60,198 nucleotides of DNA from an uncultured Nitrososphaerota archaeon (GCA_964618805.1 CAZUBM010000006.1:22831-83028); one strand, 5' to 3'; shown: positions 3,001-19,229, counted from the first letter of the stretch. Translations and numbers: made by a program. The notes: a model not told the origin generated them from the letters alone.

Positions 3001-4576
3001 CAAGCCTTATGGGAAATATCTCGGGAGTGATGAAGCAATCCTGAACTCCTGAAGAAGGAGATTGAGAGTACCTCGAAAGCGTCGATAATAGCGGTGGCGC
3101 TGTACCTGAAGCAATCCTGAACTCCTGAAGAAGGAGATTGAGAGAAGATAAGGAAGCAATCAGAACAGGACGGAGCCTTATTGCAAGGAAGCAATCCTGA
3201 ACTCCTGAAGAAGGAGATTGAGAGGAAGATCCGCGTTGCTGAAGCATATCACGAGACATCCGTGAAGCAATCCTGAACTCCTGAAGAAGGAGATTGAGAG
3301 GCTGTTGATTACCAATTTACCGCACAATTTACACCGAAGCAATCCTGAACTCCTGAAGAAGGAGATTGAGAGGGAAACACAATTCGCATAGATCAAACTC
3401 CTTAACAAATGAAGCAATCCTGAACTCCTGAAGAAGGAGATTGAGAGAAAAAGTTAAGGCGTTCGGAAAATAAAAAAGGAAGGAGGAAGCAATCCTGAAC
3501 TCCTGAAGAAGGAGATTGAGAGTTTCCAATACAACTCGCCCCCCTTCGGTTCCTTCGGGAAGCAATCCTGAACTCCTGAAGAAGGAGATTGAGAGTTTCC
3601 AATACAACTCGCCCCCCTTCGGTTCCTTCGGGAAGCAATCCTGAACTCCTGAAGAAGGAGATTGAGAGATCAAGGACATGAGGGGGGGCCATAAGGAGAG
3701 GACGAGGAAGCAATCCTGAACTCCTGAAGAAGGAGATTGAGAGACTCTTCACTTTTTTCTTCTCTCTAACTTCAGCCTTCTCGAAGCAATCCTGAACTCC
3801 TGAAGAAGGAGATTGAGAGGACAGAGGCGTTTGTACTTCCTTGCCAAATCTCTCCCTTTGAAGCAATCCTGAACTCCTGAAGAAGGAGATTGAGAGGTAA
3901 ACTGTCCTCTTATGAGACCTTACAGTATGTTGCTTGAAGCAATCCTGAACTCCTGAAGAAGGAGATTGAGAGTTCTCAGGCACTTCCTCTGGAACTTCTA
4001 TGTACTTGTGAAGCAATCCTGAACTCCTGAAGAAGGAGATTGAGAGTTGGTTGTAATGAAGGTACCAAGTTTCTTGAGCCCCGAAGCAATCCTGAACTCC
4101 TGAAGAAGGAGATTGAGAGGATAACCGATTTTATTCAAAGGTCTCTAACAGCGTGATGAAGCAATCCTGAACTCCTGAAGAAGGAGATTGAGAGTTTTTC
4201 TTGAGAAACCGAGCCGCCTCATGGCCCTTCCTGAAGCAATCCTGAACTCCTGAAGAAGGAGATTGAGAGAAGAAAGTGGTAAAGTAATGTTTATGCTGGC
4301 CTTTGGCTGAAGCAATCCTGAACTCCTGAAGAAGGAGATTGAGAGTTGAGAGCTTGTCTAGGCACTCGAGCATCTGATCCCCCTGAAGCAATCCTGAACT
4401 CCTGAAGAAGGAGATTGAGAGTCGAATATTGGGAATTAAGCCAAATAGATCAAGTCCCTAGGAAGCAATCCTGAACTCCTGAAGAAGGAGATTGAGAGAA
4501 GCCTCGTTCTCCTTTGATTCCATACATACTTATCATTATGAAGCAATCCTGAACTCCTGAAGAAGGAGATTGAGAC
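19..4576 (+). CRISPR. CRISPR array, 61 repeats (GAAGCAATCCTGAACTCCTGAAGAAGGAGATTGAGAG, 37 bp), 60 spacers of ~34-43 bp; continues off the left edge
   Basis: Exact repeats counted by eye from 19 to 4540. The repeat has a CTCCT/AGGAG stem followed by ATTGAGAG (an ATTGAAAG-like 8-nt handle). The last repeat ends in C instead of G, marking the trailer end and supporting + orientation. Confidence 0.99.
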
Positions 4577-4882
4577 GAACTTGTGTGCCTTTAGTTTCCT
4601 CATGGCCGTTTCAATCAGTCTTTTCATATCTGATAAAAGAAGCTGGCCATCTCGTCCTTTATGAGAAATCAGAAGAAGTCAATAGAGAAATAGAGGTCTT
4701 CTTAAGATCCTTAGCATAGCAAAGCGAACAAGCTTTACTCATCCTTACGGCTTCCCAAGCCTCCCTAGCGCTTTAAGCATTTGACACGTTCTCAGAGCAA
4801 CCCCATTATTTCTGATGCTCTTATGCTGTGGCGATGATCCATTCAGGAGCCGCATGGCATTGTTTTTATCTAAAAAGTACTT

Positions 4883-5506
4883 CTAATATCTCTGCCATTC
4901 CCTCTTTTCATCTCTTATCTCTAGCCTCATCCAACAAAGAGTTCTTTACCCTACCTTAACTTCCTTATCTATGAAGTAACCTCCTTTAAATAGAGGTTGA
5001 AGGCTGGTGTGTCACGATCTGCAAACGAAGATTATTCCACTATACCCCCCTTCTTCCGCCTTTCTCCTTAAGAAGCGCAACACTTTACTGCCGAGTCCCC
5101 GTCTCTTGTATGCTGGTCGAGTGCGAGGACAATAAGCTCTAGAACTCTTTCTTTATAGCTAGGCTCCTCCTTATGAATCTCCTCAAGCATCTTTTGCTGC
5201 CTTCCAACCTAGAACCCTGATGAGAGTGAAAATGAACTTTAACAGGGCGAAGGCTGATGGCTCTTCTTTTGAGTCCACCGAGAGAGATATGCAAGCCATC
5301 TTCTCATCCTTACTTATCCCATAGAGGTAGGATCTCTTAGAACTGCCAAAGAAATCGAGAAAAGCCTTCATCACTGCTCTTGTGGTTTTCTTGCTTGCTC
5401 CTAAAGAAGGAATTAAGGGATCGCCTTCCTCGAAGGCCTCTGTTAGGACATCTAAGACCTCTTCGCTCTCAGATTCAAGAAGTTCTATCCTTGTCTTGTT
5501 TACCAT
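4883..5506 (-). pseudogene. GNAT-family acetyltransferase, frameshifted
   Basis: ORF 5183-5506 stops early. Downstream frames give pieces reading approximately LEL..TRPAYKRRGLGSKVLRFL and DRDTPAFNLYLKE (acetyl-CoA-binding motif A and C-terminal LY motif). Confidence 0.6.
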
Positions 5507-5540
5507 GGAACCTCGCTCATCTTTTCCCTGATTTTCGGCC

Positions 5541-5714
5541 CCAATAGGACCGGTGAAGGGCCAGGTTGTTGAGTTAGAAATGATGCTTGATAAATACTAC
5601 GAGCTGAGAGGATGGGACAAGGAAACAGGCCTGCCAAAGAAGGAAACGTTGCTTAGGATCGGCTTGCAGGATGTTGCTGAGGACCTAGAGGCTAGGGGAA
5701 TTAAACTCCTATGA
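5541..5714 (+). pseudogene. C-terminal remnant of an aldehyde:ferredoxin oxidoreductase
   Basis: Translates as [49 protein letters not shown], closely matching the C-termini of the AORs at 29841 and 33620. Confidence 0.85.
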
Positions 5715-5899
5715 GATGAGATATGCCGATCTCAAAACCTGGTTAACGGGAAGCTAAGTTTCTCCTAAGGTCGCTTTGATGTCTTCTTCGGTTACCCTTG
5801 GGTAGTTCTAGATGGGGGTTGATCGCCTATTTTTAGCTTTGCATTGGTTAACTAAGAAGTTTTAAATCGGCAGAAATTACTCCAATTTGAGGTATTAAA

Positions 5900-6226
5900 A
5901 TGACGCGGACCAAATCCTTACCTAAGGAGCTTATGAGGAGAGGAATAGAAGAGAAATTGGTCGAAATATGTGAGAAAAATAATATAATTTTCATGGCTGT
6001 CTTTGGTTCCCTTATCAGAGGTGAGCATAAGAAGAGCAGCGACATCGACATCGCAATTGAGTTCGAGGAACGTAAGAGAAAAAGTCTTCTAGATCTAGTT
6101 AGAATTGAAAGGGAGTTAAGCAAATTATTCAAAAGAAAAGTGGATCTCGGAATTTTTAGCAGTTTAAGTCCTTACATAATAGAAAATGTGAGAAAGGAGA
6201 TGGTCATCATTTATGAAAAGAGATGA
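5900..6226 (+). CDS. Minimal nucleotidyltransferase (MNT) antitoxin
   Basis: VFGSLIRGEHKKSSDIDI motif, 108 aa, overlaps the downstream HEPN gene. Confidence 0.92.
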   Translation: MTRTKSLPKELMRRGIEEKLVEICEKNNIIFMAVFGSLIRGEHKKSSDIDIAIEFEERKRKSLLDLVRIERELSKLFKRKVDLGIFSSLSPYIIENVRKEMVIIYEKR

Positions 6227-6566
6227 AGCTTATTTAAGGCATATCTTAGAGGCAATATCTGATATACGACAATTTATTGAAGGCATATCAGAGGAGGCCT
6301 TCATGAAAAATAAGGAGAAGCAATACGCTGTTTTAAGGGCACTTGAAATAATAGGAGAAGCAACAAAGAATCTAAGTGAGAAGTTGAAGGTGGAACATCC
6401 AGAAATCCCTTGGAAAGATATCGCTGGTATGAGAAATAAGCTCATTCATCAGTATTTCGGTGTAAAGATGGAGCTGGTTTGGGAAACAGTCAAGAGTAAA
6501 CTACCTGAGCTTGAAAGACAAATTCTTAAAATTCTAGAGGAAATTGAGAGGCGAGAGGATCGATAA
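6213..6566 (+). CDS. HEPN/DUF86 (HepT-like) ribonuclease toxin
   Basis: IIGEA and IPWKDIAGMRNKLIHQYF (RX4HXY) motifs. Confidence 0.93.
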   Translation: MKRDEAYLRHILEAISDIRQFIEGISEEAFMKNKEKQYAVLRALEIIGEATKNLSEKLKVEHPEIPWKDIAGMRNKLIHQYFGVKMELVWETVKSKLPELERQILKILEEIERREDR

Positions 6567-6901
6567 CAGCCCTATTAAGCTTCTCAAGCAGCTTAAAGCT
6601 GCCTCCGAAAGTCTATTTCCACCATGCTCGAAAGTTCTCTTTTCTAAGTTCATCTAGAAATTCGCTTTTAGTCCAAAGCATTGCTATTATGTTTCTTTCG
6701 ATCTCCTGATCCTTATTTCATCTAGCTCTTAGTTCCTTTAAGGGAATGCGGAAGTAGATAGCATATCTTCCTCAAGCAAGTGTTCCTCTAAGCTCGTGAA
6801 CTCATCTTGTACAAGATTCCTCCTTCCCTCACTTTCGCCCCGCTCTTCCTTCATCATCTTCACCATTCTCAGGATTTGCATGGCCTATGAGTCCTAACAT
6901 A

Positions 6902-7040
6902 TCAGGTACGGGAAGGAATTTTGAATTCCTTCCTCTTTACGACATTTGAGGGCTCGAGCCTTGGTATATCTAGCCCATCAAAGTGTTTATCATAAGAAAT
7001 TATGGCCGTTACTCCCAATTTCTTTGCAACCGTGTACTGG
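6902..7040 (-). pseudogene. C-terminal fragment of a PIN/VapC protein
   Basis: TVAKKLGVTAIISYDKHFDGLDIPRLEP is a typical PIN C-terminus. The upstream part of ORF 6902-7201 is not PIN-like. Confidence 0.65.
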
Positions 7041-7375
7041 ATGCAAAGTACACGGCTTCTCCCTGGCTTCGCTTGTTGATCAATCTTTGTAGCCTTGCCA
7101 TCGGGAGCCATTACCTTATCACCTAGAATCCATGCCTCCCTTTCCTGGTAACTATGAATCCAGGGCTTAAGGCATTCGACTGGCTTAAAATTGGATTCCA
7201 CTCATCCGCGCGATGGATGTATGAGTGATAATTTGTGATGTTGAAAGGCGCATGTGATGTGTATAGGGGTAGGGGATGTGAAGGTTAACGTCCTGTTTCT
7301 AGCGTTGTTGTTGATTTTGTTGGCGCGCGCTAACGTTGAAGATATGCCTAAAGTTATATTTGCATTAGACCTATC

Positions 7376-7410
7376 CTTTCAATCTCTCTCTGAGGGACTC
7401 TTATTGTAAC
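7376..7410 (-). repeat. Solitary CRISPR-like repeat GTTACAATAAGAGTCCCTCAGAGAGAGATTGAAAG
   Basis: GTTACAATAAGA 5' end and ATTGAAAG 3' end typical of archaeal repeats; single copy in the window. Confidence 0.7.
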
Positions 7411-7420
7411 GGAATCTCAC

Positions 7421-7574
7421 ATAAACCATCTTGAGGGATAGCGCGCTACATGGGTAAGGACGGGGCTGAATTGACAGCCCTTAACTCCACATGAAGGCTG
7501 GGTGTGGCTTGTAGCCTCCAAACATCCACACCAGAAAGTGGAGAAGCTCCCAACTTAAGTTGGGAGAGTGTCAA
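7421..7574 (+). mobile_element. IS200/IS605-family (tnpB) 3'-end and right-end remnant, omega/reRNA-like
   Basis: Three hairpins: GGGCTG/CAGCCC at ~7462-7480, GGTGTGG/CCACACC at 7501-7532 and the perfect palindrome CTCCCAACTTAAGTTGGGAG at 7547-7566. The last is preceded by GAAG and followed by GTCA, the usual layout of IS605/IS1341 right ends. Confidence 0.65.
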
Positions 7575-8782
7575 GTTATAACCGCTAAGAAAAGATGGAT
7601 ATTATCCTCATCTAAGATCTTCACACCCCTTGGGTAGCGGCGATGCGGCTTCCCAACCTTAATCTCTATCCTCAGATCGTTCGCTAGGACGTCAACCTCA
7701 TATGAGTCCCTATAGTAAAAAACCTCACCGTATCTCCTGAGGAGGTGTGCCTGGACCACCCACTCGTAAAGGGCAGCATCCAAGAACTTTGTGAGTGTCC
7801 ATAGCGAAAGGGATCTGGCCGTAAAAGGATCCAAGAAGAAGAATTTGCTCTCTTTCCTCCAGAAGACTTTCTTCCCCCTCCTGTACATGGCTCGGTCGAG
7901 CACCATGAGAGCTCTGAAAATTTCCAAGTATTCCCTAACTGTCCTGTGTGAGACAGAGAGTTCTGAGCCTATTGAGGCATAGGATAAGGGAGACGGTGCC
8001 TTCCTCAGGATGGAAGACACCAACCCTCTTGCAAGGTGGGGATCTCTCCCAGCCCTTAGCAGCTCGCCCTCTAGCGACCTTATGGTGTACTCTGCAGCCC
8101 TTGGATCCTTATTAACTGATAGAGGGAACCCTCCGACCTCTAGGTATTCGTGGAAAAGCTCCATTATTGCTCTGGACTTCGGAAGGAGCCTGGACATATC
8201 CATTTCAATGTCACCACTAACCTTAACATCCACACCTTTGACATGGAGAAACTCCTTGAAGGAGAGTGGTTGCGCGATGACCTCCCTGCCCCGCCCCATC
8301 CTGCCGGGGAAGAGCTCAACCTCACCTCTTAACCTTAGAGAAGAGGAACCCGTTAAAACCAAGACGTCCTTGGCGAAGAAACCAGCATCCACATAGCCCT
8401 TTATCACCTTCCACCAGCCCTTAAGGCTGGTCACCTCATCCAAGAACACGTAGCTCATCTTAACTTCAGATGCCCTTCTAAATGAATCGTAGTCTTCCAG
8501 CATGATTCGGAGGGATTCAGGATCCGGAGCCACATCCAAGTTGAGGTACAATATTGCTTCGGGCCTCACTTTTTTAAGCAGCTCTTCTATCAGCAGATGG
8601 ATGCCTGTAGTTTTTCCTACGAGCCTTGGTCCTATGACAAAGTTGAGAGAGAAGGGCTCCAGGCTCAGCTTTTCTATCCAGCTCGGCCTCCATCTGACCT
8701 CCTTATTGGCCCATTCTGCGACGACTGGGCTGCCCTTGCCCTCCCACCACGGGTTATAAAGGGACAACAGGTCTTTCGACAT
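7571..8782 (-). CDS. AAA+ ATPase (AAA_14 + DUF4143, COG1373-like)
   Basis: YNPWW N-terminus, Walker A GPRLVGKTT, Walker B VFLDEV, LTGSS, GGFP and C-terminal EVD motifs. Confidence 0.9.
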   Translation of the reverse strand: MSKDLLSLYNPWWEGKGSPVVAEWANKEVRWRPSWIEKLSLEPFSLNFVIGPRLVGKTTGIHLLIEELLKKVRPEAILYLNLDVAPDPESLRIMLEDYDSFRRASEVKMSYVFLDEVTSLKGWWKVIKGYVDAGFFAKDVLVLTGSSSLRLRGEVELFPGRMGRGREVIAQPLSFKEFLHVKGVDVKVSGDIEMDMSRLLPKSRAIMELFHEYLEVGGFPLSVNKDPRAAEYTIRSLEGELLRAGRDPHLARGLVSSILRKAPSPLSYASIGSELSVSHRTVREYLEIFRALMVLDRAMYRRGKKVFWRKESKFFFLDPFTARSLSLWTLTKFLDAALYEWVVQAHLLRRYGEVFYYRDSYEVDVLANDLRIEIKVGKPHRRYPRGVKILDEDNIHLFLAVIT

Positions 8783-8997
8783 CTTGATACTCTAACTATC
8801 AATGTGTATATAAAGATTTGATATTTATGATAACATAATGAACATAGGCAGCCCTCATAAGTCATGATGTAAACACCCTGAAGGGGCAGTTTGGATGATT
8901 ACAAAGAATTTTTTAGCTAGGTTTCTCATTCTTCCATGTTTTACACGAAGAAAGCCACTTGATGAGTAATCTGGCATGTCAGATTCGAATTTGTCAG

Positions 8998-9166
8998 GAG
9001 TCCCTTTTATCAAGGATTGAAAGTGTTTGGCTGAAGTATTTTCTAAACTATCTTCAGTTCCTACCGAATCCCAGTAAAGGGGATTGAAAGTTTTGCACAT
9101 AAGAACTCCCTATAATGATGATAAAACCACGTTTCAATCAGATTCTCCGAGAAAGGAGGTTGAAAG
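8998..9166 (+). CRISPR. Degenerate mixed mini-array (3 repeat-like units, 2 spacers)
   Basis: GAGTCCCTTTTATCAAGGATTGAAAG (8998-9023), GAATCCCAGTAAAGGGGATTGAAAG (9066-9090) and GTTTCAATCAGATTCTCCGAGAAAGGAGGTTGAAAG (9131-9166), separated by 42 and 40 nt. Confidence 0.7.
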
Positions 9167-9610
9167 TGTTACTGTAACGCTTTGCTGTTCGACTTAGGTC
9201 TGAGGAACTCATGACTTTAACTACTCCAACCCTCTCCTGGAACTCTTTACTTCTAACTTTCTTAGGAAGTTCCTCATCATCTGTGATCAGAGGAACGCCC
9301 ATTTTCAAGGCAGTAGCTACATAAGAAGCATCATAAAAAGTGATGTGCTCTCCAACCGCAATCTTAAGCACTTGCACCCTTGAAGGGGGATCTACTAATC
9401 TCATCTTACTGTAAAGGAGATCCATCGTCTCTTGAAGCTCCATAGCCTCCTCCAAAGTGATCCTTCCCAAGAGCTTTGCCTCCTTCCAGAGAGCATTCCC
9501 AACTTCGTAAGGGTTAAGGTTAGAAGAGCGTTTCCCTCCAAAAGATCCAAGGCAAGCTCTTTGCCAGTTCTCACCAATTTAAGGAGAGCAGAAGCGTCCA
9601 TCAGCATCAT
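9138..9610 (-). pseudogene. vapC: PIN/VapC toxin, frameshifted
   Basis: N-terminus MDASALLKL in ORF 9401-9610, C-terminus ITFYDASYV..LITDD in ORF 9138-9470. The frames switch near 9500-9510. Confidence 0.85.
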
Positions 9611-9828
9611 CTTTCCCTGTCATCCCTGATTAGCCTAGCTATCTCTTCTTCAGGGATCTTCCTTAAGATCTCTCCTGCTCTCTTAAGCTTCTTAAGGAGC
9701 TCTTCCCTCTCTCTTCTCTCTACTTCTCTTTTTAGGGCCTCCTTCATCACTTCGCTTATGTTTATCCCGTATTTTTTGGCCTTCTCTACGACCATCCTGT
9801 CGACCTTAGCAGAAACGGTAATACTCAT
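9607..9828 (-). CDS. CcdA/RHH-like antitoxin (VapB)
   Basis: MSITVSAKVD..KAKKYGINISEV..EAL, small charged protein overlapping the PIN start. Confidence 0.85.
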   Translation of the reverse strand: MSITVSAKVDRMVVEKAKKYGINISEVMKEALKREVERREREELLKKLKRAGEILRKIPEEEIARLIRDDRER

Positions 9829-9979
9829 TTTGTAAACCAAGAAAGTTATACGGATAGAGTAGTCATATAAGTCTTGACAAAATTGAAAATAGCGAATATC
9901 GTATTAATGCAATCTCTGAAGGGATTGATTTTGATTGAACTACATACTCGTGTAGAGGGAAGAGAGACTTTATGGTAGT

Positions 9980-10031
9980 AAAGGAGTTCTAGAAGAGACA
10001 GATCCAAAGGAGTTCTAGAAGAGACAGATCC
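9980..10031. repeat. Perfect 26-bp tandem duplication
   Basis: AAAGGAGTTCTAGAAGAGACAGATCC at 9980-10005 and 10006-10031. Confidence 0.95.
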
Positions 10032-10164
10032 CTACTAAAGTGACAAATTATGTTTTCCTATCAAACAATCTTTGCACTCAATGGATATCAGACGAATATT
10101 GATCTAAATGCTTTACGATCCAGTAGTTCCTAGTTATCTCTCCCCCTATATATGCTAGACCTCT

Positions 10165-10647
10165 TTAGCGGCTCCAAACCACCTCGATCTCATCAAGTTC
10201 GATTATGTGATTCGAATTCTTATCAACCCAATGGAGTAACAGTGTTGTTACGGCAGAAACTTCGTGCTGAAGATAGAAGTATCCTGCTGTTGTGCCAAAT
10301 CGATGGGTTCCCATGACAAACAACTCGGTTCCTTCTCCAGACAGGTGCACTAGACAGTAGTCCTCAGCGCCCCAAGAGCTCTCATAGGTCGTCCCGTTCA
10401 CAATCATGGTATCCCTACTTGGGAAGCTAACACCCAACTCCTGGCACTTGTCGACGACATTTGGATTTGCTTTCGGCCCTTCAAGCAGCAGGCATGGCCT
10501 GCCTTCAACCAATGCAGTGAAAACCTCTCTCCCTGGAGTGAGAGCTCTGGGGATCTTCTCATTGAAGGAGTTCTTTCCGACGACAATAGCGTAGCGAAGC
10601 TCCATGAAATTCCATACATCGTTTGCCCTCCTAGACCTGAAACTCAT
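10165..10647 (-). CDS. Hypothetical protein, possibly a truncated C-terminal domain of a surface protein
   Basis: 160-aa ORF with LEGPKANP and VMGTHRFGTTA segments resembling archaeal surface-protein domains. The frame is open a little upstream without a start. Confidence 0.45.
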   Translation of the reverse strand: MSFRSRRANDVWNFMELRYAIVVGKNSFNEKIPRALTPGREVFTALVEGRPCLLLEGPKANPNVVDKCQELGVSFPSRDTMIVNGTTYESSWGAEDYCLVHLSGEGTELFVMGTHRFGTTAGYFYLQHEVSAVTTLLLHWVDKNSNHIIELDEIEVVWSR

Positions 10648-10757
10648 CGTTTCAATGTGATTGAAACTGAAAATCGGCCCTTGTTGCTTTATTTTAAATT
10701 GATCAGATTTTTTTACTATTCAGAAATTTTATATTGTCAGAAATATTGTTAAATCTG

Positions 10758-11006
10758 ATGATTGAGGCAAACGTCAGGATTGGTAAGAGGAGAACCTTGG
10801 TGATCCCAAAGAAGATAGCAGAGAATCTAGGGATAGAGGAAGGTATGAGGGTCAACCTTAGGGTTGAGGGCGACAAGATGATAATTGAGCCCATTAGGGA
10901 TGCTATTTGGCTTGCTCTCCATGGCAAGAAGGTTGCGAAGGTCACCCTTAAGGAGCTGGAGGAGGAGAGCTTTGAGAGACAGAAAGAGCTTGCAGGTACT
11001 AGTTGA
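10758..11006 (+). CDS. AbrB/MazE-family antitoxin
   Basis: VRIGKRRTLVIPKKIAENLGIEEG..KMIIEP. Confidence 0.9.
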   Translation: MIEANVRIGKRRTLVIPKKIAENLGIEEGMRVNLRVEGDKMIIEPIRDAIWLALHGKKVAKVTLKELEEESFERQKELAGTS

Positions 11007-11424
11007 CACGACATTCCTCCTACCAACATTGGGAATAGAGGTTGAGGAGCATGCTCAGGAGGTAATACCCTTATTTAGAAGGGTTCAGGTCTACTACCTT
11101 GAGGCAAGTATCTTGGAGGCTCTCTGGAAGCTAGTTAAGCTGAAGATCGATCCCTCTACCCTTGAGTCAGGAGTAGAAGCCATAAGGAGCACCTACAATG
11201 AGTTGCTTCCTAAAGCTAGTGCCTTCAGGATAGCTTTAGCCCTCTACGAACTCGGACACAGGGACCTTATAGACAACCTGCTTTACGCTTCCTCCTTCAA
11301 ATCGGGGATGCTCTTCCTTACAATAGATGAGGATTTCGTAGACTTCCTTAGAACCAAGAAACAGCCGCTGTCTCACGTGTTGACGCCGCTTTCTTTTAAA
11401 AAGGCAGTTAAAAGGGTTAGTTAA
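10990..11424 (+). CDS. vapC: PIN/VapC toxin
   Basis: VLVDTTFLLP, EA, DLIDNLLYA and LTIDED acidic residues; a TTG start overlaps the antitoxin stop. Confidence 0.88.
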   Translation: MQVLVDTTFLLPTLGIEVEEHAQEVIPLFRRVQVYYLEASILEALWKLVKLKIDPSTLESGVEAIRSTYNELLPKASAFRIALALYELGHRDLIDNLLYASSFKSGMLFLTIDEDFVDFLRTKKQPLSHVLTPLSFKKAVKRVS

Positions 11425-11904
11425 CTCTACCAATGTTTCTCTAAGGTTATTGTACCTGCAACTTTAACGACTGTAATCAGAGTCTCTGAGAGCCATAGGA
11501 TACTTGCCTAGATAAATGAAGAGAAATCGATATCTTCTCTACCGCTAACTTAAATTTCGTCTGATGGAAATAATATGAGGTTAAGAGGCTTGTTTGCACA
11601 TCTGGTTGCCTGAGGTAAAGGTGACAACCGAGCATTTTGAAGGTTTTATGGAAAAACAATCATGGGAGAGCAATGTTTGAGAAGGACGTGGTGAAAATCC
11701 TTTTATTGTAATTAACGCGTGGATTCAAGGCAATTTGCCGGAATCTCAAAGCTCTCCCTTGGTCAATATTTCTTTTTTGAAGCTCTCAGATAGATATTCA
11801 CGTTTTTCAAATGAAAGATTTATTTCTTCTTTAAGAAAGAGAAGTGGTGATTATCTCAGAAAGGCCTTCTCTTTTTAAGAGGAAGGACCTGAGGGGAAGG
11901 AGAG

Positions 11905-12586
11905 ATGATAGAGAAAATCACTGAGTGGTTAACTATCATTTTCTTCATCTGGTTTGTCCTTACATTATTCCTTGGGCGAAATGGCCCAATCTTTTAGGTC
12001 TTAGGCAGAGCCCGTTTCTCGCTACAACGAGATCGTAGGTGACTACAACAAGGAATACTACAGGAAGTACCTGATCTTTCCATGCAACATCTTCGGTAAA
12101 AGAGTGATCGGGATAGGTGATATCCTCAATGTCACTTTCCCGTCAGGCCGGAAGTCCTTGAAAAAGCACTATGCTCTTGAGAACGTCGTATTCTTACCGT
12201 CAGACCCATCGCTCAGTCCTTGGAGGTGCAAAGACAAGCCACGTGAATGGGGAGACACAATTTCGGACCACATGAAAAAATTCGACGTGACCGTTTAGAT
12301 TCCGATACCCTACATACCCAGACTGGAAGGAACAACAATCAATGGAACGCTTGAAATGGATCTAATTTATCCTGAGGAGACACGCTCGATTGCATTCTGG
12401 GGTAAGTTCGTCAATCGGTACGAACACTTGGAGAAAAGCCTTAGCATCCACATCTTCACTAGCACGGAAATCGAAGAACTCTCTGACCTCGAGAGTCAAA
12501 TAGGTTCCCTATGGAAGAGGTCCGTTTTGTTCTCCTTCTTGGGGACCGTCGTGTTCTTCATCCTATGGCGCAGGAGTGTGGCATAA
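11905..12586 (+). pseudogene. Fragmented membrane protein gene
   Basis: Hydrophobic N-terminal piece from 11905, followed by short ORFs 12104-12298 and 12356-12586 ending in a TM helix. Confidence 0.45.
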
Positions 12587-12702
12587 ACACACAGTTGCTT
12601 CGGTGCTCACGCAGTTGTGCCTTGGTATGTTAAGGAAGAATCATCAGGAAGGTACAAGATTTATGTTTACAACTGCGACGGTGAGTATGGATATAATGTT
12701 CC

Positions 12703-13455
12703 TTAACCAAGCTCAATAGCTCCTCTCAAGAGGGGCTGATACACCAAGTTTGCTACGGTCCCCTTTAGAATGAAGTCCAAAGCTATTGTCAGGATGGCTA
12801 GATATAGTTGCCTCTTAACCTGCCTTTCATCGAACTCTACTTTAAGAATCTTGGAAAATATGGGTACTGAGAGGACTATCCCTAGGTTCACGTACCCAAC
12901 AACTCTGAGTATTGCGTAAATCGGCCAGCCAAAGATAAGGGGGACCCAAAGCTTCCCCGGCCTTGCATGGATTATGATACATCCAACATAGTAGTTCATG
13001 TAATTAAGCAGGAAGGAGCCAAGGAAGAGGCCTAAGAACCCGGCTGAAAACAGGCACAGAACTGAAAAGATTGCAATTTCTCTCAGCTTCGGCACGATAA
13101 AGAGCCTAGGATCTCCTTCAGGACCTTTTCCCGTTTTTATCCAATCTAACATCTCCTGCTTGTACGATGTCCCGTGGAGTATAAGCTCACCTATTCCTTC
13201 CCCTAGCAAAGCAGTGAGGAGTATTAATGTTATTGAGGAGGAGAGAGCCCATAAAAGGACATGCTTTGAGGCCTCCCAGCTTCTGCCTTGCCTAAGGTCT
13301 AGGTAGTAGATTGGATATATCGCAATGGTCATCACGAGGGGAAAGGCGAACTTTGAGATATTTGAAAGAAGAAGCCCTACAAGGGTGGAAATAACACCTG
13401 TTGCAAGGGAAAGGAGGCAGCCCTTGACGCCCTTAAGAGGAAGGTCCGGTCGCAA
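12703..13455 (-). CDS. Multi-pass membrane protein of unknown function
   Basis: 250 aa with several hydrophobic helices. Confidence 0.75.
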   Translation of the reverse strand: MRPDLPLKGVKGCLLSLATGVISTLVGLLLSNISKFAFPLVMTIAIYPIYYLDLRQGRSWEASKHVLLWALSSSITLILLTALLGEGIGELILHGTSYKQEMLDWIKTGKGPEGDPRLFIVPKLREIAIFSVLCLFSAGFLGLFLGSFLLNYMNYYVGCIIIHARPGKLWVPLIFGWPIYAILRVVGYVNLGIVLSVPIFSKILKVEFDERQVKRQLYLAILTIALDFILKGTVANLVYQPLLRGAIELG

Positions 13456-13746
13456 GACGATCCCCTCTCAAGAAGAGAGCTTACCTTATAAAGGTAAGAT
13501 ATCAAGCCCCTCGATGGACATTTATTCATAGAAGAGGTATAGAAGGTCATCAAATCCTATTTAGAAAAGCTCCAAGGAAATAGGTCGAATGAGCCTTGAA
13601 ATTAGTGAGGAGCAAAGAAATGACTTCTTAATACCCCTAGCTAAAGAAGAATTCTTAAGCAAACCTGGGATTCAAGAAATTGCACAAATTTTCCAACTTC
13701 GCCTGGTCAAAACGGGTTATCAGATGGGGCGTGATAGACCTTTTTT

Positions 13747-14022
13747 ATGCCCGTTGCTTATTCCTATAGGTTGGAGAGAAAAAAGTTCGTCATAGCCGGT
13801 CCAAGAGTTCATGGGGTTGGCTACAGGATTCTTCTAATAAACATAGCCCTAGAAATCGCCATGGATAAGATGGCAGCTTACAACACTTTCGTGGAGGATA
13901 AAGAGGCAGCAAGTGCCATAATAGAGGGAGATAAGAAAAATAGAGTCTTTTTCAAAGTTAGTCAGGGAGAGGGACGGGGACATAATATCCAGCAACTTCA
14001 TGTGGATAATGCAGTACATTGA
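13747..14022 (+). pseudogene. Acylphosphatase-like domain fragment
   Basis: GPRVHGVGYR resembles the acylphosphatase VQGVGFR loop; the C-terminus looks frameshifted. Confidence 0.5.
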
Positions 14023-14101
14023 GAGTGGACCGGGCTCACCCTTTTTGCTAACGGGCCTTTACCTCACATGGTACGAAGCCTGCACGATCGGTTACTCGAG
14101 C

Positions 14102-14557
14102 TTATCCCTCCTCAACGGATCTGAGGTAGATCTCCAGCTCGCTGCCCTTCACCTTCTCCTCTTTTCTAACTAAATAGCACTTCATCCTTACGACAAGGCC
14201 AGGTGGCGTGTCAGCGACCCAGCCAGTTGAGATGCAATATCCATTCTCGTCAACTACGCCGTACCCTCCGCACTCCCTTCCCTTTAGTGGGTGACCTTGG
14301 GTGAAATTAATTGAATCGCAGAAGCACACGATCCTGTACCTGGCATACCTAGGGGAGGTCTTGAATGTTATGTTGAAGTGTTCCCAATGCCTCACTTCTA
14401 CGATTATTTTCCCATCGTGCTCGCTAATTTCCCCTTTGCTCACGCCTACTACTTCTATTTTTGGGCGAGACCAGTAAATCGTGTAGAACGCAGCCGCTAG
14501 AACCGCAAGCAATAGCAGGGCTACGATTAATGCAAGCCTCCTCATCTTCATATCCAT
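14102..14557 (-). CDS. Membrane-anchored or secreted hypothetical protein
   Basis: Basic N-terminus plus hydrophobic helix, Cys-containing soluble domain. Confidence 0.7.
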   Translation of the reverse strand: MDMKMRRLALIVALLLLAVLAAAFYTIYWSRPKIEVVGVSKGEISEHDGKIIVEVRHWEHFNITFKTSPRYARYRIVCFCDSINFTQGHPLKGRECGGYGVVDENGYCISTGWVADTPPGLVVRMKCYLVRKEEKVKGSELEIYLRSVEEG

Positions 14558-14654
14558 AAACCAATTGACTCCTCCATTTAAGAATAATCAACGTCTTCTC
14601 TCCAGAGATGAGGGAGGGAAATTGTCTCCGCAGGAGAAAGGACAGTCGGCGCGC

Positions 14655-14741
14655 GCTTCAATCAGAATCTCCGGGAGGGGGAGATCGAAAGTATAATACC
14701 GCCAGAGTTCCAGAGGCCCTGTGTTAGCGTTTCAATCAGAA
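14655..14741 (+). CRISPR. Repeat-spacer-truncated repeat unit
   Basis: GCTTCAATCAGAATCTCCGGGAGGGGGAGATCGAAAG (14655-14691), a 37-nt spacer, then GTTTCAATCAGAA (14729-14741), cut off. Confidence 0.75.
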
Positions 14742-14834
14742 GGGCCTTATCATAAACTTATTCGGAATACCTAGGGCTAGGATGGAACTAGAGCCTGCTA
14801 ATTTTCGTTTTGAAGAAGGACGAGGATGTTTTAT

Positions 14835-14866
14835 AGATTTAAATAATACATGTATTACTTAAATCT
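14835..14866. promoter_or_regulatory. 32-bp palindromic operator upstream of TA operon
   Basis: AGATTTAAATAATACATGTATTACTTAAATCT, one mismatched pair, ending 2 bp before the ATG. Confidence 0.7.
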
Positions 14867-14868
14867 CG

Positions 14869-15150
14869 ATGACTATGAAGGATAAGATCACCAGCATCAG
14901 GATAAGGGAGGACCTTTGGAAAGATGCTAAGATCTTAGCTATTGAGGAAGGAATTACTTTGAGGGCGCTTATTGAAGAATTGTTGGGTTCTGCTGTTCAG
15001 GGAGCTAGATTAGCCAAGAAATTTCAGTTAGGGATACAGGATGATGTTCTAGAGGTGCTTAGATCCAAGAGAAAGACGAAGGAGATTCCCTTCACGATAG
15101 TTCATGAGAAGACCGCTGTTGAACTCGTGAGAGAGGGCAGGGGTGAGTAG
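14869..15150 (+). CDS. Ribbon-helix-helix antitoxin
   Basis: ITSIRIREDLWKDAKILAIEEGITLRALIEELL and C-terminal TAVELVREGR. Confidence 0.85.
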   Translation: MTMKDKITSIRIREDLWKDAKILAIEEGITLRALIEELLGSAVQGARLAKKFQLGIQDDVLEVLRSKRKTKEIPFTIVHEKTAVELVREGRGE

Positions 15151-15155
15151 ACTAG

Positions 15156-15665
15156 GTGGTTGAGCTTAATGCTTTATACTTAGATACTAACGTTATTATA
15201 GCCAGGTATAAGCCATCCGATCCCCTTTACGGAGACTCGAATAAATTATTTACCAGAAGCTTCAGATTTTTTATTTCGCCAGTAACCTTGTTTGAGCTAT
15301 ATTCTGTCATTTCGAGACTACGACCTGGTTTGGTTTTACCTAAGGAGGCTAAACACGCATCGGTGAATACAATAGTTCGCTTCATGATGGAAGATTGTGG
15401 CCTAAAGCTCGTATCCAAAACCTTTTTGGCTGCAGCTTTTTTCCTCGGTGAGAAAGCTAGGTTGCCTTTAGAGTACTGGTTGTCGGTGATATTGGCTGAA
15501 AAGTTGAGGTTAAGAGCTTTAGACTTACTTCACATTGCTTATGCTGCTATGTTAAGGGATAAAGTACAGATATTTGTAACAGGAGATGATGAGATCTTAG
15601 AGCGAAGGGATTCTATAAAAGAGACCGTTGAGCTTGAGGTAAGACATCCTAGAGAGCTATTTTGA
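15156..15665 (+). CDS. vapC: PIN/VapC toxin
   Basis: LYLDTNVII, TLFEL, LRALDLLHIAYA and FVTGD motifs. Confidence 0.9.
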   Translation: MVELNALYLDTNVIIARYKPSDPLYGDSNKLFTRSFRFFISPVTLFELYSVISRLRPGLVLPKEAKHASVNTIVRFMMEDCGLKLVSKTFLAAAFFLGEKARLPLEYWLSVILAEKLRLRALDLLHIAYAAMLRDKVQIFVTGDDEILERRDSIKETVELEVRHPRELF

Positions 15666-15821
15666 GTAGGAGAATATGAAGAGAGCTCCACGATAGCGAT
15701 AAATCCATATGAATATAACATTGGTCATGGTTAGAGAAAATCTGCTGTAAACAAGCCTACAAATGCATAAAATAATCGAACTGGCTTTTTGCATGTGGAT
15801 GTGTGGATCTCCCAACTTGAT

Positions 15822-15857
15822 GCTTTAATCAGAATCTCCGAGAAAGGAGATTGAAAG
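15822..15857 (+). repeat. Solitary CRISPR-like repeat GCTTTAATCAGAATCTCCGAGAAAGGAGATTGAAAG
   Basis: 32/36 identical to the unit at 9131-9166. Confidence 0.8.
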
Positions 15858-16030
15858 TTTAATAGATATCCCAGTTTTCTCCTGCTCCTTTGCTCTAACC
15901 GTCTGGAGCCAAGGTTCTCCATTCCCAAAGCAGTTAGGCCTTGAGTTTGAAATATCTATCTCTATAAATTAGATTATTCAAAAAGAACAGTGGATTTATG
16001 TGGCTTTTAGTCTAGTTCTCCTAATAGGGA

Positions 16031-16630
16031 TTATAAAGTCTCTCTATCCATTAGCTTAGGAACCCAGAGATACCTAACTACATAGGGCACATCCTTCATG
16101 TCTAGGAAACGTGTCACATCCGTCGTCTTATTATAAGGGACAATAAAGCTCCCCCTGCCCACTCTAAAGCCTCTAAGCTTCTCGACAATTCCTACATACC
16201 TTCGTTTTCCTTTTCTGCCGTAGAGCCTATGTAGGATCTTTACCTTTTCAACTGGATCTAGGCCCTTTAGATCGTAGCTGATTAATGCTATGGGAGAGAA
16301 GCCGATCAACTTCCCTAGGTCAAAGTCCCCTTTTCTGAAGAGGGTTATCCCGTCTCTAAGGACCGACGTTAGCAGTGGAGATGATTTTATTTCTTCTATG
16401 GTCATTGATATTACCTGTACGAAAGCTTCTGACTTAGAAGCCAGTTTCCAGACTTCTTTTCTTCCCAGTTTGAGGGTTTCGCCATCCAAAAATAGGACGA
16501 GGAGATCCACATCGCTTCCTTCGTCGAACTCCCCTCTGGCGTAGCTTCCGAACATTATCACCGCTAGAACCCCTTTTATCTTTCCGATTTTTGAGACTAG
16601 CTCCTTTATCTCTTTAGGAACTTGACTCAA
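16031..16630 (-). CDS. MNT nucleotidyltransferase with extra C-terminal domain (Cas2/VapD/PaaX-middle-like)
   Basis: MFGSYARGEFDEGSDVDL in the N-terminal half; the C-terminal ~85 aa begin ALISYDLKGL. Confidence 0.8.
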   Translation of the reverse strand: MSQVPKEIKELVSKIGKIKGVLAVIMFGSYARGEFDEGSDVDLLVLFLDGETLKLGRKEVWKLASKSEAFVQVISMTIEEIKSSPLLTSVLRDGITLFRKGDFDLGKLIGFSPIALISYDLKGLDPVEKVKILHRLYGRKGKRRYVGIVEKLRGFRVGRGSFIVPYNKTTDVTRFLDMKDVPYVVRYLWVPKLMDRETL

Positions 16631-16985
16631 TACACTCCCTCCTTAAAACTTCTAGAATTTCCTCCAAAGTCCTCAATGCCAGCTCCGCCCTTTCCTCATC
16701 CTCTCCTCCATATCCAAGCTCTGCATATATGGACCAAAGGGTTTCCCAAGCCTCCGATAGCTCTGGAAAATTTGATCTTAGCCAATTTCTCCTCATTTTA
16801 TGAGCTCTTCTGGAATCTTCATGAAAGTGGAGATCCTTTCTAGCTGCACAGGCCTCTATAGCCTGTTCTAGTGACCTGATAGAGAGTATCCCGACGTTTG
16901 AGTATCTTTTTGCCCTAAACTCACTTCTAGCTCCGTCTCTGTTTTCAATAGCGAGCTTCCAATGGTAGAGTGGATCTCCCATCAT
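16614..16985 (-). CDS. HEPN-superfamily protein
   Basis: All-helical ~123 aa with SLEQAIEA and HEDSRRAH; overlaps the MNT gene. Confidence 0.65.
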   Translation of the reverse strand: MMGDPLYHWKLAIENRDGARSEFRAKRYSNVGILSIRSLEQAIEACAARKDLHFHEDSRRAHKMRRNWLRSNFPELSEAWETLWSIYAELGYGGEDEERAELALRTLEEILEVLRRECIESSS

Positions 16986-17156
16986 GTTAATAATTAACAT
17001 AGATATAAAAATCTTCTTCAGATACGATCTTTTCCTACGTTGAGAGAGCTAAGTGCAGAATGAGTAGCATTGCTTCCTAACTTATCTACCTCCCAATCGA
17101 AACCCTCAAAGTGGAGTTGGCACAGGAAATCTTCCTTTTGCGTTGGTTTTCTTATT

Positions 17157-17501
17157 TCATTCCAACTTTAGTCCCAGCTTCTCAAGCCTCTTGAAGTGTT
17201 GGTCCCCGCTTTTCAGCCTTAGATTATGGGTTATGGCTGTTGCCCCTATTAGAAGATCTACATCCGGTATCAGTATGCCTTTCCTTTTGAGATCTTGATA
17301 CAACCTACAATAGGTTTCTATCACCTTATTGTCTAAGGTTAAGACGTCAAAGCTCTCTTCGAGAAGCCTTTTTACTTCTCGCCTTTTTTCAGCCTTTACT
17401 CCTCTAAGAACCTCTATTAGGGTTATTATCGATATGGCCCCGGCTTCATACCTTTTCCTTCGCAGCAACTCAACTATGGCATCCGTGTCTAGGAGCCTCA
17501 T
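17157..17501 (-). CDS. vapC: PIN/VapC toxin
   Basis: LLDTD, ITLIEV, DVDLLIGATA and GDQHF motifs. Confidence 0.92.
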   Translation of the reverse strand: MRLLDTDAIVELLRRKRYEAGAISIITLIEVLRGVKAEKRREVKRLLEESFDVLTLDNKVIETYCRLYQDLKRKGILIPDVDLLIGATAITHNLRLKSGDQHFKRLEKLGLKLE

Positions 17502-17725
17502 CTCAACTTGAACCTTTTCCTGAACTCTTTTCTGGATTTGAGTATGCTTTCTATCTCCTCCTCTGTTAACTTCTCAGCAAGCTTCTCAAATGATTCTTTG
17601 GCTTTCAATCTCTTAGCTTCCATATAGAGCTTTAGAAGGAAATCTCCCCATTCTTCTTCTCCCTTAGCCTCTTCCAAAATTCTCTTGACCTCGGCTGGGA
17701 CTGAAATAGTTGTGTACCTGTTCAT
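17498..17725 (-). CDS. vapB: VapB-type antitoxin
   Basis: YTTISVPAEVKRILEEAKG; ATGA overlap with the PIN gene. Confidence 0.85.
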   Translation of the reverse strand: MNRYTTISVPAEVKRILEEAKGEEEWGDFLLKLYMEAKRLKAKESFEKLAEKLTEEEIESILKSRKEFRKRFKLR

Positions 17726-17754
17726 ATATAACTACATAATTATGTAGTTATATA
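17725..17754. promoter_or_regulatory. Perfect 30-bp palindromic operator
   Basis: TATATAACTACATAATTATGTAGTTATATA abuts the antitoxin start codon. Confidence 0.8.
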
Positions 17755-17836
17755 ATTAAATATTTCTGCTGGGTTATGTCCAATGACATGATTATCAGAA
17801 AGGAAGATATGAAAGGTTTTGGTCCCTATTAGTTTC

Positions 17837-19229
17837 TTAGGTGAGTTCAAGTCTTTTTAAAACTCTTACAGCTATTAAGAAAAATACTAGAAGGAGTATG
17901 GCTGCTATGATGAATGGGTTTGTGAGGAACTCCAGGATCGGAGATTTAACAGGTTCTGAAGACCATACTGCTGTCAGCTTGATGGGTCCTTTGACTTCTA
18001 TCTCAAGTGATAGATCTGTGGAGATACTATTTCCCTGCTGATCTTCCCATTCGACAAACCTATATCTTGTATCATCCTGCACGAACTCAGCCCGATCCAG
18101 TGAAATGTGAGCGATTTCCCCCTTTGGGTACCAGCCTTCACCTGAAACTTGTCCGAAGGGGCTCTCTACCTCTACTAGGTATTCCTCTCTCCACTTTGCG
18201 TATATTACGACGTGTTCTTTGTCCAATTTTAATTGAATAGTGCTTTGTGATGACAAGAAGTTACCCTGTTCATCTACCCAGCCTGTAAAGACGTATCTAA
18301 CCCTGCGACTGGTTTGGTGCACGGTGGGACTCAGGGACACTGTTACCACTTCCCCGAGCAGGTAGACACCAGCTCCTTGAAACCGTTCCATGCTCTGACA
18401 TCACCTCCAGCGTAGAAGTCCCTTTCTCTTCAAATTCGACGACGAGAGGGAACTTTTCGGTTCCGTAGAAGTACTTGTTAAAGAATTCTGTGAAATCGTG
18501 ACCAGTTACCAGGTTAACTGCTTCAATGAAATCGTTTGAAGTGACCTCCTTCCCTTTTAATGCATAGTTCTCGTACAAGTAATGAATGACATCGTTCACG
18601 CCTTTTTCGCCATTTGTAACCCTCCTTATCTCTTGGTCGAGGGTGTAGCTAAACAACCGAATCTTCTTCTCATTGTTTACAACAGCATCTCTGTATATGG
18701 GTAGTATTTCCTTCCCCTTGTTTGCCTCCTCGTATGCAAGCCATGTGTGATACAGGCTCATTCTGTACTCATCTTCGCTCCAATTGAAGATGTCCACCAT
18801 TGCTCTGCCCCCATAATAGAACCTCCAAGGATTGCAGAGCCAAGACATTGCGTTTTCCTCGATAGGACCAGGCTCAAATTCTGCAAACCAAGTGCTCGGT
18901 ACATGAAGTGGGAAGTCCATCATAGCCTCTGGAAAACTCGCTCTTTTCCTCTCATTTGCTGGAATTATTTCGAAGAAAGACGCATATTCTCCCATTCCCA
19001 CTAATTCGCCCAATCCCTCAATGTCTCGAGCTTGAGCTGGTAGCACTATTCCTAGCAGGGTTTCAGGTTGGTAATCGCCAATAACTTCCTGGAAGTACTC
19101 TACTAACTTTAAAACGTAGTTTGCCTCTGCTGCCAGAACAGGGATTTGTAGAATCCCAATTGCTAGGTTGCAGAGAAGTAGCATGCTTCCTAAAAGCTTA
19201 AGCCGATTTTGAAACATCCTATTCGCCAC
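17837..19229 (-). pseudogene. Secreted metallopeptidase-like surface protein with repeat domains and C-terminal TM, split by frameshift
   Basis: ORF 18297-19229 has a signal peptide and an M1/M61-like C-terminal region (LDQEIRRVT..DFTEFFNKY) but no HEXXH. ORF 17837-18391 continues with G.G.Y..GE.V / YxFxxW repeats and a TM anchor. Confidence 0.6.

Follow-up and report, generated by a model that had tools for sequence, protein, structure and literature searches.

The stretch of DNA examined here, referred to as the window, comprises 60,198 nucleotides (nt) of an uncultured Nitrososphaerota archaeon and corresponds to positions 22831-83028 of contig C6 (CAZUBM010000006.1) in a genome assembly (G000; GCA_964618805.1; 2,176,148 bases, 62 contigs, 93.7% complete) whose DNA runs are labelled hydrothermal-vent metagenomes. 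It opens within a live CRISPR array, array B, which belongs to a type III-B system, and on the trailer side of this array, its oldest side, lies a series of short repeat-like units dispersed among toxin-antitoxin (TA) genes. In our judgement these units are very probably fossil fragments of earlier CRISPR arrays in a rearranging, TA-rich region. Their homology to real arrays with varied spacers, their array-like spacing, and the lack of a leader together with visible decay all point to vestigial arrays. Coordinates refer to the window unless a contig is named.

Seven units had been listed in a preliminary description of this DNA, all of which we found essentially in their proposed places, and an eighth, absent from that list, is added here. 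As had been claimed, they are distinct from the repeat of the live arrays (R1), with an identity of 76% between R1 and the 36-nt repeat R2; other than the single family implied earlier, they fall into three, namely R2, R3 (a minus-strand unit) and R4 (25 nt). The R2 consensus put forward earlier is indeed held by three full copies, all on the plus strand. Those at 9131-9166 (GUUGAAAG) and 15822-15857 each show 2 differences from the R2 of the metagenome contig L010, the form found in relatives being GTTTCAATCAGAATCTCCGAGAAAGGAGATTGAAAG, and in the latter copy hairpin and tail are perfect, while the third, at 14655-14691, is a degenerate copy of 37 nt with an altered loop, the handle ATCGAAAG and a lost hairpin. 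At 14729-14741 (plus strand), 37 nt past this degenerate copy, the first 13 nt of R2 stand as the truncated terminal repeat of a one-spacer vestige. A further degenerate R2 3' half at 14622-14648 is too weak to be claimed. The eighth unit is an R2-type 5' stub of 11 nt (GTTTCAATCAG, 4608-4618, plus strand), located 31 nt past the terminal R1 of array B, so that it starts about where the next repeat of that array would. R4 is represented by the unit GAATCCCAGTAAAGGGGATTGAAAG at 9066-9090 (plus strand, 25 nt), whose hairpin is still complete in the window, and by a degenerate R4-like unit at 8997-9023 (plus strand), which retains the tail ATTGAAAG and has lost its hairpin; together with the R2 copy at 9131, which closes it, they form a vestigial mini-array of degenerate R4, R4 and R2. 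R3 (GTTACAATAAGAGTCCCTCAGAGAGAGATTGAAAG, 7376-7410, minus strand) is solitary, and because its 3' arm is 2 nt shorter than in the copy on metagenome contig L009, its hairpin is weakened (-3.9 kcal/mol in the window versus -12 kcal/mol in the L009 copy). It also gave the sole Rfam result, a weak match to CRISPR-DR6 whose 26.4 bits lie below the 39-bit gathering score.

By folding, the good R2 and R4 copies have a 6-7 bp hairpin abutting a TTGAAAG tail, as in R1, and hairpin and 8-nt tail (AUUGAAAG) are intact at 9066-9090, 9131-9166 and 15822-15857. The architecture shared with the main repeat, as previously proposed, therefore stands for the hairpin and its abutting tail, but not for the tail sequence, as the array B repeat ends in ATTGAGAG and not in ATTGAAAG. 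The distances between units likewise recall an array: tail-to-tail distances are 67 and 76 nt within 8997-9166, and the spacer at 14692-14728 measures 37 nt, compared with a period of 70-80 nt in the live arrays.

In this lineage, both R2 and R4 count as genuine CRISPR repeats. The earlier suggestion to look for arrays built from these repeats was borne out in metagenome contigs and in contigs of other sequencing runs covering the region (X3-X6). The metagenome contig scan yielded L009 and L010. On L009, six R4 copies are separated by spacers of about 38-44 nt, the contig end cutting into the first copy; next come a single R2, another spacer and an R2 that breaks off after 23 nt. L010 has this same truncated R2 behind two R2 copies, and its spacers differ from those of L009. 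Behind the truncated R2, both contigs continue with DNA 92-97% identical to window positions 6744-9106, so that the array lies directly upstream of the 6744 homolog. Furthermore, joints of R2, spacer and R2 occur with three different spacers in the other runs (two in X4, one in X6), and joints of R4, spacer and R4 with six (in X5, two of them also in X6). We also compared four other species of the genus, including the genomes G034 and G035, each with its own live array: the repeat of the G034 array is 83% identical to R2 and 89% to the first R2-like trailer repeat of array A, the second live array of C6, whereas the G035 repeat resembles R4 by eye in its 3' half, with a scored global identity of only 62%. 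In the trailer of array A itself (C6:185-352, minus strand), two full-length repeats of R2 type are followed by a degenerate third one; relative to R2, the stems of the two full repeats carry compensatory changes (TCTCTC/GAGAGA and TTCTTT/AAAGAA). Across eight repeat variants, 89.6% of the cells are paired and three of the six pairs have changed on both sides, giving a covariation score of 0.524 versus 0.375 for shuffles, which was reached by 3 of 500 shuffles. The hairpin is thus maintained across the variants by compensatory changes.

A transition from R4 to R2 within one array was seen twice, in L009:1-300 and at window 8997-9166, with different junction spacers, which suggests that two arrays passed through the same change of repeat type. 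R2-like repeats, moreover, close the trailer ends of both live arrays, as the stub behind array B and as the trailer repeats behind array A. In CRISPR adaptation, new repeats join an array at the leader end. Taken together with the R2-type repeats at both trailer ends, we infer that R2-type arrays came first and R1 last.

Within the genome, full-length R2 is confined to the window; a search of the 2.18-Mb assembly found none elsewhere. A 33-nt R2 pattern with up to three mismatches hit two places, both in the window (reversed control: none), and the 3' half of R2 with up to four mismatches gave four matches versus none in the control, the best two being the window copies. The 5' half with at most one mismatch matched nine times versus once in the control, five of the nine on contig C6; the four that fall on other contigs are followed by neither hairpin nor tail and were dismissed as chance. 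A general dispersal of repeat-like units was rejected as well, as a genome scan for a hairpin followed by TTGAAAG returned 30 matches outside arrays compared with 23-28 for three control motifs. Beyond this genome, a search of 38 genomes of the order, G000 among them, gave no R2 match in the other 37, and R3 matched only the window itself among genomes of the order. The sole R4 match in the order, in G002, falls inside a coding region and is regarded as chance. A 23-nt R2 pattern had no match in a public genome collection; a looser pattern hit two single sites in assemblies that, going by their titles, are of unrelated bacteria, and these were also treated as chance.

The cas genes of the live system beside which the units lie are of archaeal kinds, occupy C6:3021-21975 and are flanked by two diverging R1 arrays. 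Array A comprises 30 R1 repeats of 37 nt on the minus strand (C6:391-2603) with the repeat tail ATTGAAAG; array B, on the plus strand, counts 63 R1 copies (GAAGCAATCCTGAACTCCTGAAGAAGGAGATTGAGAG) over the whole contig and 61 that begin inside the window (19-4576), has the repeat tail ATTGAGAG and closes with a terminal R1 copy (4540-4576) ending in GAGAC. From array A onwards the genes follow in the order csa1, cas1, cas2, cas4, csx14-like, cas10/cmr2, cmr3, cmr4, cmr5, a second cmr4, cmr1, cmr6, a crn1-like ring nuclease gene, a CARF protein gene and cas6 (C6:21285-21920), followed by array B, whose leader and the cas6 gene lie directly upstream of the window. With cas10/cmr2, cmr1, cmr3-6, cas6 and arrays, each gene above its NCBIfam cut-off, and with an adaptation module present, the system is of type III-B. 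Both leaders share an 18-nt motif (TAGCACATCTTTATAAAT; C6:22511-22528 and C6:2694-2711) about 90 nt before the first repeat, which includes a TATA-like box and is probably the array promoter; it has no further match in the whole genome, and the dispersed units are without it. The 8-nt tail, the part of the repeat that the Cmr complex would retain as the tag of a CRISPR RNA (crRNA), differs by one base between the two live arrays (ATTGAGAG in array B, ATTGAAAG in array A). Within array B, an exact 227-nt tandem duplication at 695-1148 holds three repeat-spacer units twice, and just before the window a run of about 100 N bases (C6:22731-22830) splits the array.

Elsewhere in the genome a second cas6 (C3:10835-11410, within C3:10820-11647) is isolated among housekeeping genes, with an RNA 2',3'-cyclic phosphodiesterase gene as its neighbour. 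The first 20 kb of contig C3 yielded no array, and a second cas locus around this lone cas6 was accordingly rejected. For cas3, no match exceeded the cut-off in the 93.7% complete assembly, in which other Cascade genes were not searched singly, and hence no Cascade-type repressor is in sight.

The preliminary description had proposed that the units guide Cas-mediated control of the TA genes, and our results do not support this: no target rose above shuffles, the effector is of type III-B, and neither position nor hairpin is conserved. The effector search suggested earlier did return cas6 and an effector, but the latter is RNA-targeting and not a promoter-binding Cascade. Seven guide-like flanks were compared with the genome against 20 shuffles each, and none exceeded them save one explained match: the flank of the 15822 unit has a 17-nt match of 34.2 bits (shuffle maximum 32.2), and this flank, rejected as a spacer, belongs to a secreted-protein gene, of which it is the 5' end and of which genome G037 has an intact homolog. 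Against both strands of the local 15 kb, none of six guides scored above 30 shuffles, and the 90 live R1 spacers yielded two weak partial matches in the genome outside the arrays, none of them in the island.

Comparison with relatives points the same way. Around the R4 unit at 9066-9090 the shared block diverges by about 3-5% in L010 and G035, and three (L010) or four (G035) changes within 26 nt destroy the stem. Homology to the window ends at 9106, 16 nt past this R4 unit, in L010, in G035 and in contigs of X3, X4, X5 and X6, so that the R2 copy at 9131 lies outside the shared block 6744-9106. One X4 contig joins 8847 to 9422; it is without 8848-9421 and hence without the mini-array. A simple deletion from 9107 to about 19100 in the relatives was considered and set aside, as the gene at the junction shares only its signal-peptide region with the window gene. 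The expected conserved linkage of repeats and TA genes was not found, and the homologous cassettes compared in relatives (RHH-PIN in one genome, AbrB-PIN of C11 in two) have no repeats at the flanks examined. As far as the sequence can tell, the units appear to be without function; most likely they are not expressed as working guides and do not act on the TA genes.

How the present arrangement may have arisen can be outlined as follows. R2 and R4, still used by related populations, would have been superseded here by R1; deletions, rearrangements and the arrival of gene cassettes, type II TA pairs in many cases, would then have broken the old array stretches apart. The survivors of this process would be the stub behind array B, the vestige of degenerate R4, R4 and R2, the one-spacer vestige of R2 and truncated R2, the solitary R2 and the solitary minus-strand R3. 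The stub at 4608-4618 would mark the old trailer end of array B, mirroring the R2-like trailer of array A.

The neighbouring genes were annotated with Pfam on 26 open frames between 5183 and 19229, which confirmed the previously noted PIN and HEPN/MNT operons beside the units. The families above cut-off (PIN, HepT-like, NTP_transf_2, MazE_antitoxin, CcdA and VAPB_antitox) make up predicted type II TA pairs. On the plus strand these are MNT (5900-6226) with HepT (6213-6566), spanning 5900-6566 (Polbeta/NTP_transf_2, E 8.7e-19; HepT-like, E 1.6e-32), a MazE/AbrB antitoxin with a PIN toxin (10734-11424), and an RHH antitoxin with a PIN toxin (14869-15665). On the minus strand they are PIN (9138-9610) with a CcdA/RHH antitoxin (9607-9840; pair 9138-9840), MNT (16031-16630) with HEPN (16614-17000; pair 16031-17000, the HEPN match being weak, E 0.0081), and PIN (17157-17501) with VapB (17498-17725; pair 17157-17725). 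Upstream of the RHH-PIN cassette, the promoter region 14835-14866 is a near-perfect palindrome that is kept in the G036 homolog and is probably the operator of the antitoxin.

Several genes of the region are broken. In a fusion remnant at 6902-7201 (minus strand), a 639-bp deletion has brought the N-terminus of an upstream gene together with the C-terminus of a PIN gene: at the joint 7042/7054, 639 letters lie between in X5 and X6, and both genes are intact in L010, X5 and X6. An AFOR (aldehyde ferredoxin oxidoreductase) C-terminal fragment of 53 amino acids (aa) was recognized by Pfam at 5553-5714, and the 5' fragment of the secreted-protein gene (15858-15930, minus strand) abuts R2, its homolog being the N-terminus of a 549-aa open frame (G037, contig C24). 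The PIN gene at 9138-9610 is frameshifted near 9527-9554 relative to two homologs, and its reading frame overruns the end of the homologs by about 45 nt, into R2. An AAA_14/DUF4143 ATPase gene (7571-8782, minus strand) forms the core of the block 6744-9106 common to the relatives. Further along the window, paired stretches that are 70-92% identical (24926-25024/37264-37362, 30316-31105/34098-34896 and 37995-38294/56397-56696) are presumably paralogous genes.

TA genes are abundant in the genome as a whole, with 43 PIN and 31 MNT-type matches clustered on contigs C22, C2, C11 and C6; the island of 11.5 kb holds four of the 43 and two of the 31, respectively. Neither of the two biggest PIN clusters outside the island (C22:14-32 kb and C2:0.5-8.4 kb) is accompanied by repeats, as no repeat-like unit was found on C22 or in C2:1-8500. 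On C11, an orphan R4-like unit (AATCCCAGTAGAAGGATTGAAAG, C11:49995-50018) lies within the 160 bp that separate two vapBC cassettes, and an MNT/HEPN pair is found close by. In G037 and G035, the 250 nt next to the homologs of the adjoining AbrB-PIN cassette, on the orphan's side, are free of repeat-like units. The RHH-PIN cassette of the window (14834-15661) has an 82% identical homolog in G036 with no repeats beside it.

These distributions bear on the proposal that the repeats are active recombination sites which capture, excise or shuffle TA cassettes, somewhat in the manner of an integron, and thereby caused the island. The R2 copies at block junctions keep this proposal alive. In its favour, too, are three R2 copies of which only the 5' part is left (window 4618 and 14741, and L009/L010), behind each of which non-array DNA begins and a TA cassette lies close, and the orphan on C11. 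A 3'-truncated terminal repeat is, however, the ordinary end of an array, seen also in the live G034 array beside a housekeeping-looking, unannotated gene, and the sequences behind the three breaks share no motif by eye. Cassettes also occur well enough without repeats, as in the G036 homolog and, on the orphan's side, in those of G037 and G035, and of 43 PIN matches four lie in the island and two flank the C11 orphan, no repeat-like unit being found on C22 or in C2:1-8500. We therefore consider this proposal unlikely. In a region that is variable and rich in TA genes, the repeats are more plausibly bystanders than a device for cassette capture. The earlier view of the units as scars where TA cassettes accumulate thus survives in part: they are pieces of former arrays in a rearranging trailer-side region, but a causal role in cassette capture is unsupported. 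Even less expected is that the units belong to a mobile element or virus and interfere with the host CRISPR system, either as RNA anti-CRISPRs (Racr) or as virus-borne mini-arrays, a proposal to which we give hardly any credence. In their form, solitary repeats whose hairpin is intact do recall published RNA anti-CRISPRs (PMC10651486). Yet at 76% identity between R1 and R2 the units would be poor mimics of the current repeat, a viral contig collection held no match to the R2 pattern, no tRNA gene was found in the window, the 26 annotated open frames (5183-19229) included no integrase or virus-type family match, and the same repeat types build ordinary arrays in relatives.

Distinctly improbable, too, is that the units are working crRNA-like regulators, cut by Cas6, loaded into Cmr and used on TA transcripts. 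Its clearest candidate is the R2 copy at 9131-9166, downstream of which the sequence is exactly antisense to the convergent PIN gene at its 3' end; on the opposite strand the open frame of this PIN gene overlaps R2, and pairing of the anti-tag would prevent immune activation. Hairpin and tail are preserved in the three best copies (9066-9090, 9131-9166 and 15822-15857), the genome has two cas6 genes, and, in the text of the standalone-repeat survey used here, mini-array control of cargo TA genes was proposed for type I-D loci (PMC10120712). On the other hand, the candidate target gene at 9138-9610 is frameshifted, homology in L010, G035, X3, X5 and X6 ends at 9106, ahead of both R2 and cassette, and the X4 contig retains part of the PIN/antitoxin region but without the mini-array. 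There is no leader or promoter motif at the units, the remaining guide-like flanks match nothing, the 15822 flank being a gene fragment, and the same portion of the survey gives no targets for type III-adjacent mini-arrays (PMC10120712). In its boldest form, to which we assign very little weight, an RNA from 9131-9166, processed by Cas6, would bear a AUUGAAAG-type tag and a guide against the 3' end of the PIN mRNA, the anti-tag included, and Cmr would cut the toxin message without immune alarm; more broadly, three generations of repeats would be recorded at one site and the relics recruited for self-regulation. If this were true, the type III system would be an RNA-level antitoxin on which the cell depends.

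The interpretation of the units as fossil array fragments has to accommodate several points that weigh against it. The copies at 9131 and 15822 are only two changes away from the R2 of relatives, with perfect hairpin and tail, and are therefore either young relics or under some constraint. R2 copies stand at junctions of unrelated blocks (9166/9167, 14741/14742 and 15857/15858), a placement that pure decay does not require, and the C11 orphan between vapBC cassettes means that the link between repeats and TA genes recurs once outside the locus. In addition, about 11 nt of seed pairing suffice for CreA-type guides, a length that shuffle tests cannot separate from chance, and metagenome assemblies often miss arrays, so that the counts in relatives are lower bounds.

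Read as array fossils, the units make the locus a legible archive of CRISPR turnover within a single genus of archaea from hydrothermal-vent metagenomes. The older repeat types R2 and R4, live in sister populations, would persist as fragments behind the R1 arrays, a pattern that fits the replacement of a central module of cas genes, leaders and arrays while the old trailers stayed in place, and the trailer side of an array would become a dumping ground for TA cassettes and gene fragments. For genome scans this implies a warning, namely that repeat-like units beside TA genes at type III loci may most often be decay products. A regulatory system would have been striking; as the evidence points to relics, the remaining interest is modest.

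Among known systems, CreTA of haloarchaeal type I-B loci resembles the present case in that a degenerate unit of two repeats and one spacer lies beside toxin genes in a CRISPR locus, as set out in the pages of the survey drawn on here (PMC10120712). According to the same pages, the CreA spacer is partly complementary to the toxin promoter; CreA relies on the DNA-binding Cascade, keeps guard over an RNA toxin and is encoded between the cas genes (PMC10120712). Unlike CreTA, the units of the window showed no complementarity, stand beside a type III-B effector and PIN/HEPN protein toxins and lie outside the cas operon; guide matches did not exceed shuffles (though a seed-only match of about 11 nt would escape this test), neither the cas locus nor the cas3 search pointed to a Cascade, and the position is not conserved, given the break at 9106. 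Racr elements share with these units the form of a solitary repeat bearing the repeat hairpin, but they are described, in the available part of the report, as carried by viruses and as mimicking the current repeat of the host (PMC10651486), whereas the units here are chromosomal, of older type and decaying; a viral contig match was lacking, R1 and R2 share 76% identity and no mobile-element hallmark was found in the 26 open frames.

Closer parallels are offered by two other settings. As far as the survey text used here extends, 10-14% of type III systems have mini-arrays near their arrays; neither a conserved position nor targets were found for these mini-arrays, which were judged to be probably degraded repeats (PMC10120712). 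The window agrees with them in having mini-arrays of 2-3 units near an array, with a partly degraded distal repeat, an unconserved position and no targets, and differs in that its relics are not copies of the current repeat but belong to two or three older families and are strewn among TA cassettes along 11 kb. In Acidianus hospitalis, five vapBC pairs lie interspersed among the CRISPR/Cas/Cmr modules, and the genome also has an array that lacks both a leader and cas genes (PMC3119797, in the part relied on here). As in these Sulfolobales, diverse TA pairs of the window occupy a variable region within or beside CRISPR and cmr modules, together with leaderless array remains; TA cassettes between fragments of older-type arrays are not described in that part of the text (PMC3119797). 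Going by these portions of both sources, the locus fits both the mini-arrays of the survey and the vapBC interspersion of Acidianus, and what it adds is that its relics belong to older repeat families still used by sister populations.

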